Part shown: positions 1 through 755 of the stretch, one piece after another
Layout of the letters: every line of letters begins with the position of its first letter
Position numbering within the stretch: the stretch's first letter is position 1
From: a virus
Lineage: Duplodnaviria > Heunggongvirae > Uroviricota > Caudoviricetes
DNA: 7,574 nucleotides
IMG/VR virus record: IMGVR_UViG_2645727991_000009
Direction: 5' to 3' (one strand)
Position numbers and translations under genes: made by a program
The notes under the pieces: model-generated
Seen by the model: only the letters and a program-made list of their open reading frames with translations
Database searches by the model: none
What the model was told of the DNA's origin: nothing

Positions 1-2
1 GC

Positions 3-755
3 ATTATTCCGGATCGTCTGGCAACCGCTATTCTGAACGCAGCCGGGCGCACCTCAGCCTTCATCAGTGGTAAGGCACCGGAAATCAAACCCTCGCCCGG
101 CGGCAACACGCCATCGGGTCCGTCTGCAGATACGTCTGTTCGCACAATCTCCCTGCTGCCGGCAGCCGGAGAGGCTGCTGCGCAGGGCTGGAGCATTAAG
201 GATGGCGGAATTCAGTTGTCAGATGGTGTATTTAAGATCACCAAGCAGAGCAATAAAACCTGGTCCCTGACGCATCCGGTGGATGACGCAATTACCCTGC
301 TGACACAGGGCGGCAGACTGACCTGTAAGTTCCGCCTGTCAGGCGCACTGACCAACAATCAGTTCGGACTGGGGATTTATCTGTATACGGATGCTCCCGT
401 TCCTGATGGTGTGGCGATGACGGGTACCGGTAATCCGTTCCTGATATCGTACTTCACTCAGACCACTGACGGCAGAGTGAATCTGATGCATCACAGGAAA
501 GCCGGAAACACGAAGCTGGGGGAGTTCGGCGATTACGGTAACGACTGGCAGACGCTGGAGCTGGTGTTCACCGCCGGCAGTGCCACGGTTACTCCGAAAC
601 TGAATGGAGTGGCTGGCCCGGCATTCCAGGCCATAAAAGACAGTCTGACACTGGGACTAAATGCACTGACGCTGACGGATATTACAAAAAATGCAACGTA
701 TGGCGTTGAGATAGAAAGTCTGGTGCTGGAGATAAATGCACCGGCATCATCATAA
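3..755 (+). CDS. Hypothetical protein, 3' portion of a gene that starts upstream of the window (possible moron upstream of the lysis cassette); function unknown
   Basis: The frame is open from position 3 to the TAA ending at 755, with no ATG/GTG/TTG before the track's TTG at 216. The upstream translation ([34 protein letters not shown]...) is protein-like, not low-complexity. The product is Gly/Thr/Asn-rich, suggesting a beta-rich domain; I could not assign a family. A terminator follows the stop. Confidence 0.6.

Follow-up and report, generated by a model that had tools for sequence, protein, structure and literature searches.

The 3′ part of the prophage sialate O-acetylesterase gene nanS-p upstream of the lysis cassette of a lambdoid prophage

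Reading frame, identity and neighbouring genes

The analyzed DNA, here called the window, is a stretch of 7,574 nucleotides from a viral record (IMGVR_UViG_2645727991_000009), and its features are listed in Table 1. At the left end, frame 3 of the plus strand stays open up to the TAA at 753-755 and comprises 250 sense codons without any stop or frameshift. The frame passes beyond the left edge of the window, and the 5′ 1.1 kb of the gene falls outside. In the other frames and on the opposite strand of 1-755, the largest ORF covers 67 aa. A 179-aa ORF given for 216-755 in the program-made ORF list is an artefact, because the listing rule was to take the first start after a stop. A random frame of 251 codons would stay open with a chance of about (61/64)^251, roughly 6e-6, although it is homology that decides the matter.

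Table 1. Positions of the features in the window.
Feature	Position	Strand	Basis or remark
nanS-p, 3′ part	3-755	+	250 codons and TAA; residues 368-617 of a 617-aa prophage sialate O-acetylesterase
End of NanS-like SGNH/SASA catalytic domain (last ~12 residues)	3-38	+	3PT5 match in full-length relative reaches window residue 12
Pro/Ser/Gly-rich interdomain linker (41 residues)	39-161	+	between 3PT5-like and 6YP6-like matches
C-terminal lectin-like jelly-roll domain (DUF6645), putative non-catalytic carbohydrate-binding module	162-740	+	6YP6, PF20350
Intrinsic-terminator-like hairpin (12 bp stem, 5-nt loop), then UUUUUUAUU	838-875 (stem-loop 838-866)	+	pattern scan
Class II (P21-type) holin S, first lysis-cassette gene	905-1120	+	Pfam Phage_holin_2_1, E 1.7e-32; holin annotation in relatives
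DUF1327/YdfR-family gene (114 aa)	1125-1469		between holin and endolysin
Lysozyme (endolysin)	1520-2053		hydrophobic SAR-like N-terminus GLSAAVLALIAAGAPAP
Antirepressor-like gene (189 aa)	2324-2893		P22_AR_N and ORF11CD3
Rz, with Rz1 embedded	3047-3514		
DUF3950/YnfO-like gene	4389-4574	-	
HNH endonuclease	4616-4981		
Small and large terminase	5271-7483		TerL 5831-7483

The fragment was identical to residues 368-617 of the FORC_042 protein WP_104951193.1 at 246 of the 250 positions (98%). The DNA of 1-900 showed 98% identity with genes of the phages JLK-2012 and PPyecE_EH1910, and 1-758 matched phage 434, H-19B, YYZ-2008 and many Stx1a-converting phages. The matched genes carry the labels yjhS, '9-O-acetyl-N-acetylneuraminic acid deacetylase' and 'SASA family carbohydrate esterase'. 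The sole Pfam family found in the fragment was PF20350 (DUF6645; E 1.7e-18, residues 100-209, 67.2 bits against a cut-off of 27), and the sole solved structure found in the PDB search was 6YP6, 'NanS-p' (E 3.6e-31, query residues 54-246). PHROGs assigned the fragment to phrog_143 (positions 377-632 of 634) and phrog_3591, both of 'unknown function', and NCBIfam gave nothing for the fragment and nothing for one full-length relative.

Bases 3-755 are accordingly read as the 3′ 40% of nanS-p, the prophage paralogue of the E. coli sialate 9-O-acetylesterase NanS (probability about 0.92). The identity, domain content and position of the fragment are observed in the window itself, and we infer the enzymatic activity, glycan binding and regulation of this gene. 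The original prediction had described the C-terminal 250 aa of an unknown gene, cut by the window edge directly upstream of the lysis cassette. The location and the extent agree with the present results, as the frame runs off the left edge, the visible part corresponds to the end of 617-aa proteins and the holin is the next gene downstream. The gene itself is known, since it bears a name and an annotation in numerous records of phages and E. coli, and the homologous C-terminal domain has been crystallized (6YP6).

It was also correctly foreseen that the product is neither a Q antiterminator nor a lysis protein: DUF6645 is the only Pfam match, and the holin, DUF1327, lysozyme and Rz genes are separate ORFs downstream. 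There is a practically negligible probability that the fragment belongs to a beta-rich protein of another kind, for example a tail fibre, a receptor-binding protein, a toxin or other virulence cargo. Such a reading draws on the composition and on the slot between Q and S, which holds stx genes in other phages. The family and structure matches lead solely to DUF6645 and NanS-p, there is 98% identity with annotated SASA esterases, and the closest relatives are without upstream stx. As to the composition, Gly and Thr are enriched (11.2% each) and Leu and Ala are nearly as high (10.4% each), so that the predicted Gly/Thr/Asn-richness holds for the first two residues, while it is weak for Asn (5.2%). 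Toxin, tail-fibre and Q candidates were rejected on the basis of the DUF6645 and 6YP6 matches and the identity to the 617-aa esterase.

The gene occupies the late-operon slot of a lambdoid prophage just upstream of holin S, the stop codon lying at 753-755 and the holin beginning at 905. The relatives show the same order with Q upstream, and phage 434 carries nanS-p in the equivalent slot. The slot between Q and S had been predicted to hold cargo, and nanS-p is a classic cargo gene there. No stx gene was found upstream of nanS-p in the closest relatives.

Further downstream, holin S begins with the dual-start motif MYQMEK, which is typical of P21-type pinholins. A copy identical to the DUF1327/YdfR protein is indexed in 4033 blocks of the assembly collection. 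The antirepressor-like gene lies together with a 49-aa ORF (48 aa in the relatives) at 2324-3039, within the lysis cassette in the interval between endolysin and Rz, and the phi24B gene 'd_ant' takes a place equivalent to that of the antirepressor-like gene. The Rz1 ORF (3267-3473) is located inside Rz in a different frame and has a lipobox-like LVVSAC. Between Rz and the HNH endonuclease and terminase genes there is a low-G+C region (~3750-4500; 38-47%) in which the AT skew is strongly negative and convincing ORFs are few. At the right end the prophage large-terminase homology ends at 7479, and the last ~95 nt (7480-7574) are 99% identical to the end of the IS21-family element ISEc10 on the istA side; TerL has 550 aa instead of 553 aa and an altered C-terminus.

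The terminator ascribed to the gene in the original prediction is present as a putative one, in the form of a G+C-containing hairpin and a U-run downstream of the stop. The stem-loop is situated 83 nt past the nanS-p stop and 39 nt ahead of the holin ATG, and it has a folding energy of -17 kcal/mol with z = -4.05, none of the 200 shuffled sequences folding equally well. It is kept in FORC_042, EH1910, L005, L014 and phi24B, hence upstream of S in both allele classes, and in phi24B a compensatory change has replaced one A-U pair of the stem by G-C. At the gathering threshold the window gave no Rfam hits, and a promoter scan of the plus strand within 1-2400 detected no sigma-70-like candidates. 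The hairpin could insulate the lysis genes in the uninduced lysogen.

Domain content and full-length relatives

The catalytic-domain tail with which the fragment begins is conserved in phi24B in the alignment. Also the linker aligns with that of phi24B, at which the C-terminal domain is reported to be released by autoproteolysis; the linker of the window lacks the 'SSP' motif put forward for this cleavage. The domain following the linker was originally predicted to be a beta-rich binding or structural one, and this is in agreement with the alignment of residues 54-246 with 6YP6, since the C-terminal domain of NanS-p has been described as a lectin-like jelly-roll and proposed to be a carbohydrate-binding module (PMC8065619, PMC10462455). 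The fold is fixed because the sequence of the fragment matches a solved structure. A single-sequence AlphaFold2 prediction of the fragment (mean pLDDT 31, pTM 0.20) was unusable as a model.

A point against the main reading is that the allele class present here appears rather distant from the crystallized domain, the C-terminal domain showing about 36% identity with the phi24B/933W-type alleles in tblastn. Franke et al. 2020 proposed the domain to be a carbohydrate-binding module with an aromatic cluster formed by Y510, Y515, Y540 and F611 (phi24B numbering). In the alignment at 36% identity these residues correspond to F, Y, F and L in the window, so that three of the putative sugar-binding aromatics are kept and the fourth seems to be lost.

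Fourteen relatives were read (L001-L003, L005-L014, with two places in one genome, and L015-L016). The nanS-p gene was intact in all of them, coding for 616-617 aa. In every case the holin followed at a distance of 150-165 nt, and Q, tRNA genes, TerB and DUF3927 preceded the gene. HMM and structure searches, which with the fragment led to DUF6645 and 6YP6, added the remaining parts of the protein when run with full-length relatives: Pfam found DUF1737 (residues 3-50), SASA (66-262) and DUF6645 (467-577), and the PDB search with a full-length relative matched the NanS structure 3PT5 (residues 60-379, E 7.8e-121) and 6YP6 (residues 421-613, E 8.6e-30). The SASA domain was present in each of the 98% identical relatives, and DUF1737 was likewise seen in relatives. 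Of the catalytic motifs, the relatives have GQSN at residue 71 and RPTH at residue 356, both upstream of the portion included in the window. The question of a signal peptide was also examined with the full-length relatives, and no hydrophobic signal-like N-terminus was detected in them, the highest Kyte-Doolittle mean of 15-residue segments starting within the first 50 residues being 1.27. The lack of a signal-peptide-like N-terminus in the relatives implies release by lysis.

The three-domain architecture of the full-length relatives is shared by the 933W/phi24B NanS-p (z1466 / L0105 / vb_24B_21 = gp84; 645 aa), the C-terminal domain of which is that of 6YP6. This gene is likewise situated between Q/stx and holin S, it has a homologous catalytic domain, and the hairpin with the U-run is conserved before S. 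The two classes differ in length (645 and 617 aa), in their C-terminal domains and in the linker between DUF1737 and SASA, which is shorter in the 617-aa class. Block IV reads RPTH in the 617-aa class and RSSH or RASH in the 933W/phi24B type (PMC10462455). ORFs of the DUF826 and DUF1378 families are absent from the interval between nanS-p and S in the window, unlike in 933W and phi24B.

The chromosomal NanS (YjhS; 3PT5) is homologous to the catalytic domain of the relatives, and the reported reaction, from Neu5,9Ac2 to Neu5Ac, is the same. It is, however, a single-domain esterase without the C-terminal jelly-roll, while the window covers mostly that extra domain, the match to 3PT5 ending at residue 379 of 617.

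Allelic variation and integrity of the gene

The closest known genes are the 617-aa nanS-p/yjhS alleles of 434, H-19B, Stx1a-converting phages, JLK-2012, PPyecE_EH1910, Stx2 phage 86 and many E. coli prophages. They are 92-99% identical to the window at the DNA level over 1-758 or 1-900, show 97-98% amino-acid identity and have the same neighbours, and the window represents a minor allele among them, distinguished by M148I. In megablast searches 1-900 matched 2105 of the 5426 complete E. coli genomes, in at most 12 places per genome, and the part encoding the C-terminal domain (160-752) was found at ≥80% coverage in 1391 of them. The best identity among these 5426 genomes was 99.3% for the whole window and 99.2% for 1-900. 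Exact 42-mers from the window gave no matches in genome_contigs or viral_contigs.

The ten loci encoding an identical DUF1327 neighbour each had 11-14 differences from the window within 1-900, and several of them were identical over 901-2836. With the closest loci (L005, L007, L010 and L012) all 11 differences were in 1-900 and none in 901-2836; at seven of the 11 the window has A and the relatives G. The phage 434 homology stops at 758, and the FORC_042 homology degrades past 869. Because the differences are confined to 1-900 and the homologies end at 758 or degrade past 869, the nanS-p C-terminal domain and the following spacer look like a mosaic junction.

In comparison to L005, five codons have changed non-synonymously and four synonymously, and each replacement is conservative. 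The residues A210, I227 and T232 are common to the window and the strains CD45 and 602687, and M148I alone was seen in none of the relatives read. Several C-terminal sequence groups, and the block IV RPTH of the Stx2 phage 86, were already reported by Pascal et al. (PMC10462455), and thus also the allelic diversity was known.

As the catalytic and DUF1737 parts lie outside the window, the integrity of the gene in this genome is extrapolated from the relatives, and an intact 5′ half is likely on the ground of sequence comparison. The fragment could instead be a remnant of a nanS-p gene that an IS element, a frameshift or a similar event has disrupted before the left edge of the window, the C-terminal domain then being left unmade or made alone. 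IS elements have been reported inside nanS-p of some Stx2a phages (PMC10462455), a further case being IS629 in the nanS-p of VT2-Sakai, and the prophage of the window already has an IS21-family insertion in TerL. Decay is also seen in the closest relative, FORC_042, a prophage whose Q gene carries IS3 and whose head and tail genes are frameshifted. Such a break is nevertheless considered very improbable: the gene is intact in all 14 close relatives, the 250 codons of the window are free of stops and frameshifts, and the substitutions compared with L005 include four synonymous codons and conservative replacements, three of which are common to other intact alleles. The RefSeq label 'DUF6645 domain-containing protein' was considered as a possible sign of a truncated gene, and this was ruled out as strain 602687 bears the same label on a full 617-aa gene.

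Proposed function and biological role

All tested nanS-p alleles of EDL933 and of the O104:H4 strain C227-11 phi-cu (five NanS-p alleles) are active Neu5,9Ac2 esterases (PMC8065619, PMC5923452). These alleles supported growth on Neu5,9Ac2, the growth of EDL933 scaling with the nanS-p copy number, and recombinant NanS-p enzymes de-O-acetylate mucin glycans (PMC8065619, PMC5923452). The original suggestion that the gene could affect host phenotype fits well with these documented effects of the homologues. Mitomycin C raises nanS-p transcription by 1-2.4 logs in parallel to stx2a (PMC10462455), and with such a rise nanS-p behaves as a Q-dependent late gene and not as a gene of the quiet lysogen.

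On the model of the homologues, Q antitermination would allow nanS-p to be transcribed as part of the late operon, and the Q-modified polymerase would continue past the hairpin (838-866) to the lysis genes. Having no signal peptide, NanS-p would come out of the cell when the phage lyses it, unbound or carried on virions. The esterase would then strip O-acetyl groups off Neu5,9Ac2 and mucin sialoglycans, and the de-O-acetylated sialic acid would become usable for surviving sibling lysogens. The C-terminal domain would most likely target the enzyme to glycans, and it may be clipped off later.

It is possible, though somewhat doubtful, that nanS-p mainly serves the phage, as a DUF1737-anchored capsid-decorating enzyme which aids virion adherence or penetration at sialylated mucus or O-acetylated surface glycans, and is not lysogenic-conversion cargo. 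In phi24B, gp84 is an abundant capsid-decorating virion protein that gives one of the most intense bands; its DUF1737 binds the capsid and forms hexamers on the face-centre hexons, and the C-terminal and catalytic domains are cleaved off later, the C-terminal one after release (bioRxiv 10.64898/2026.04.10.717836). Over the N-terminal 40 residues the 617-aa class closely resembles the phi24B protein, and the gene is late-expressed and adjoins lysis and morphogenesis genes. The evidence comes, however, from a single preprint and a T=9 podovirus. The head module here is different, the relatives having a 645-aa protease-capsid fusion protein, and in the 617-aa class the DUF1737 loop, which bears the anchoring Tyr42, is shortened by three residues. 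Growth on Neu5,9Ac2 tracks nanS-p copy number in lysogens (PMC5923452). The IS21-family insertion interrupts TerL at its 3′ end, so the prophage may be defective, which would limit any virion-linked role of NanS-p.

The capsid data count in part against the original prediction, which would not hold for a standard phage structural gene: the phi24B orthologue does decorate the capsid (2026 preprint). Overall the original interpretation is partly supported, and its structural and positional inferences were largely right.

A more far-reaching conjecture, which we consider unlikely, would combine the esterase reading with both variation and display: the C-terminal class present here, with its F/Y/F/L site, would recognize a different glycan than the phi24B/933W class, and the whole protein would also be displayed on the capsid through DUF1737 in siphovirus-type lambdoid prophages. 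If this were true, swapping of C-terminal domains among alleles could retarget virions or enzyme to other mucus or surface glycans.

As an esterase gene of the late operon, nanS-p is a recognized and widespread accessory gene of lambdoid and Stx prophages, and its presence here is an ordinary finding. The window contributes a further minor allele to the common 617-aa class and illustrates a clustering of mosaic junctions at the C-terminal domain and the spacer between nanS-p and S. Multiple prophage copies of nanS-p let pathogenic E. coli use the O-acetylated sialic acids of mucus, and recent work suggests that the protein decorates capsids too.
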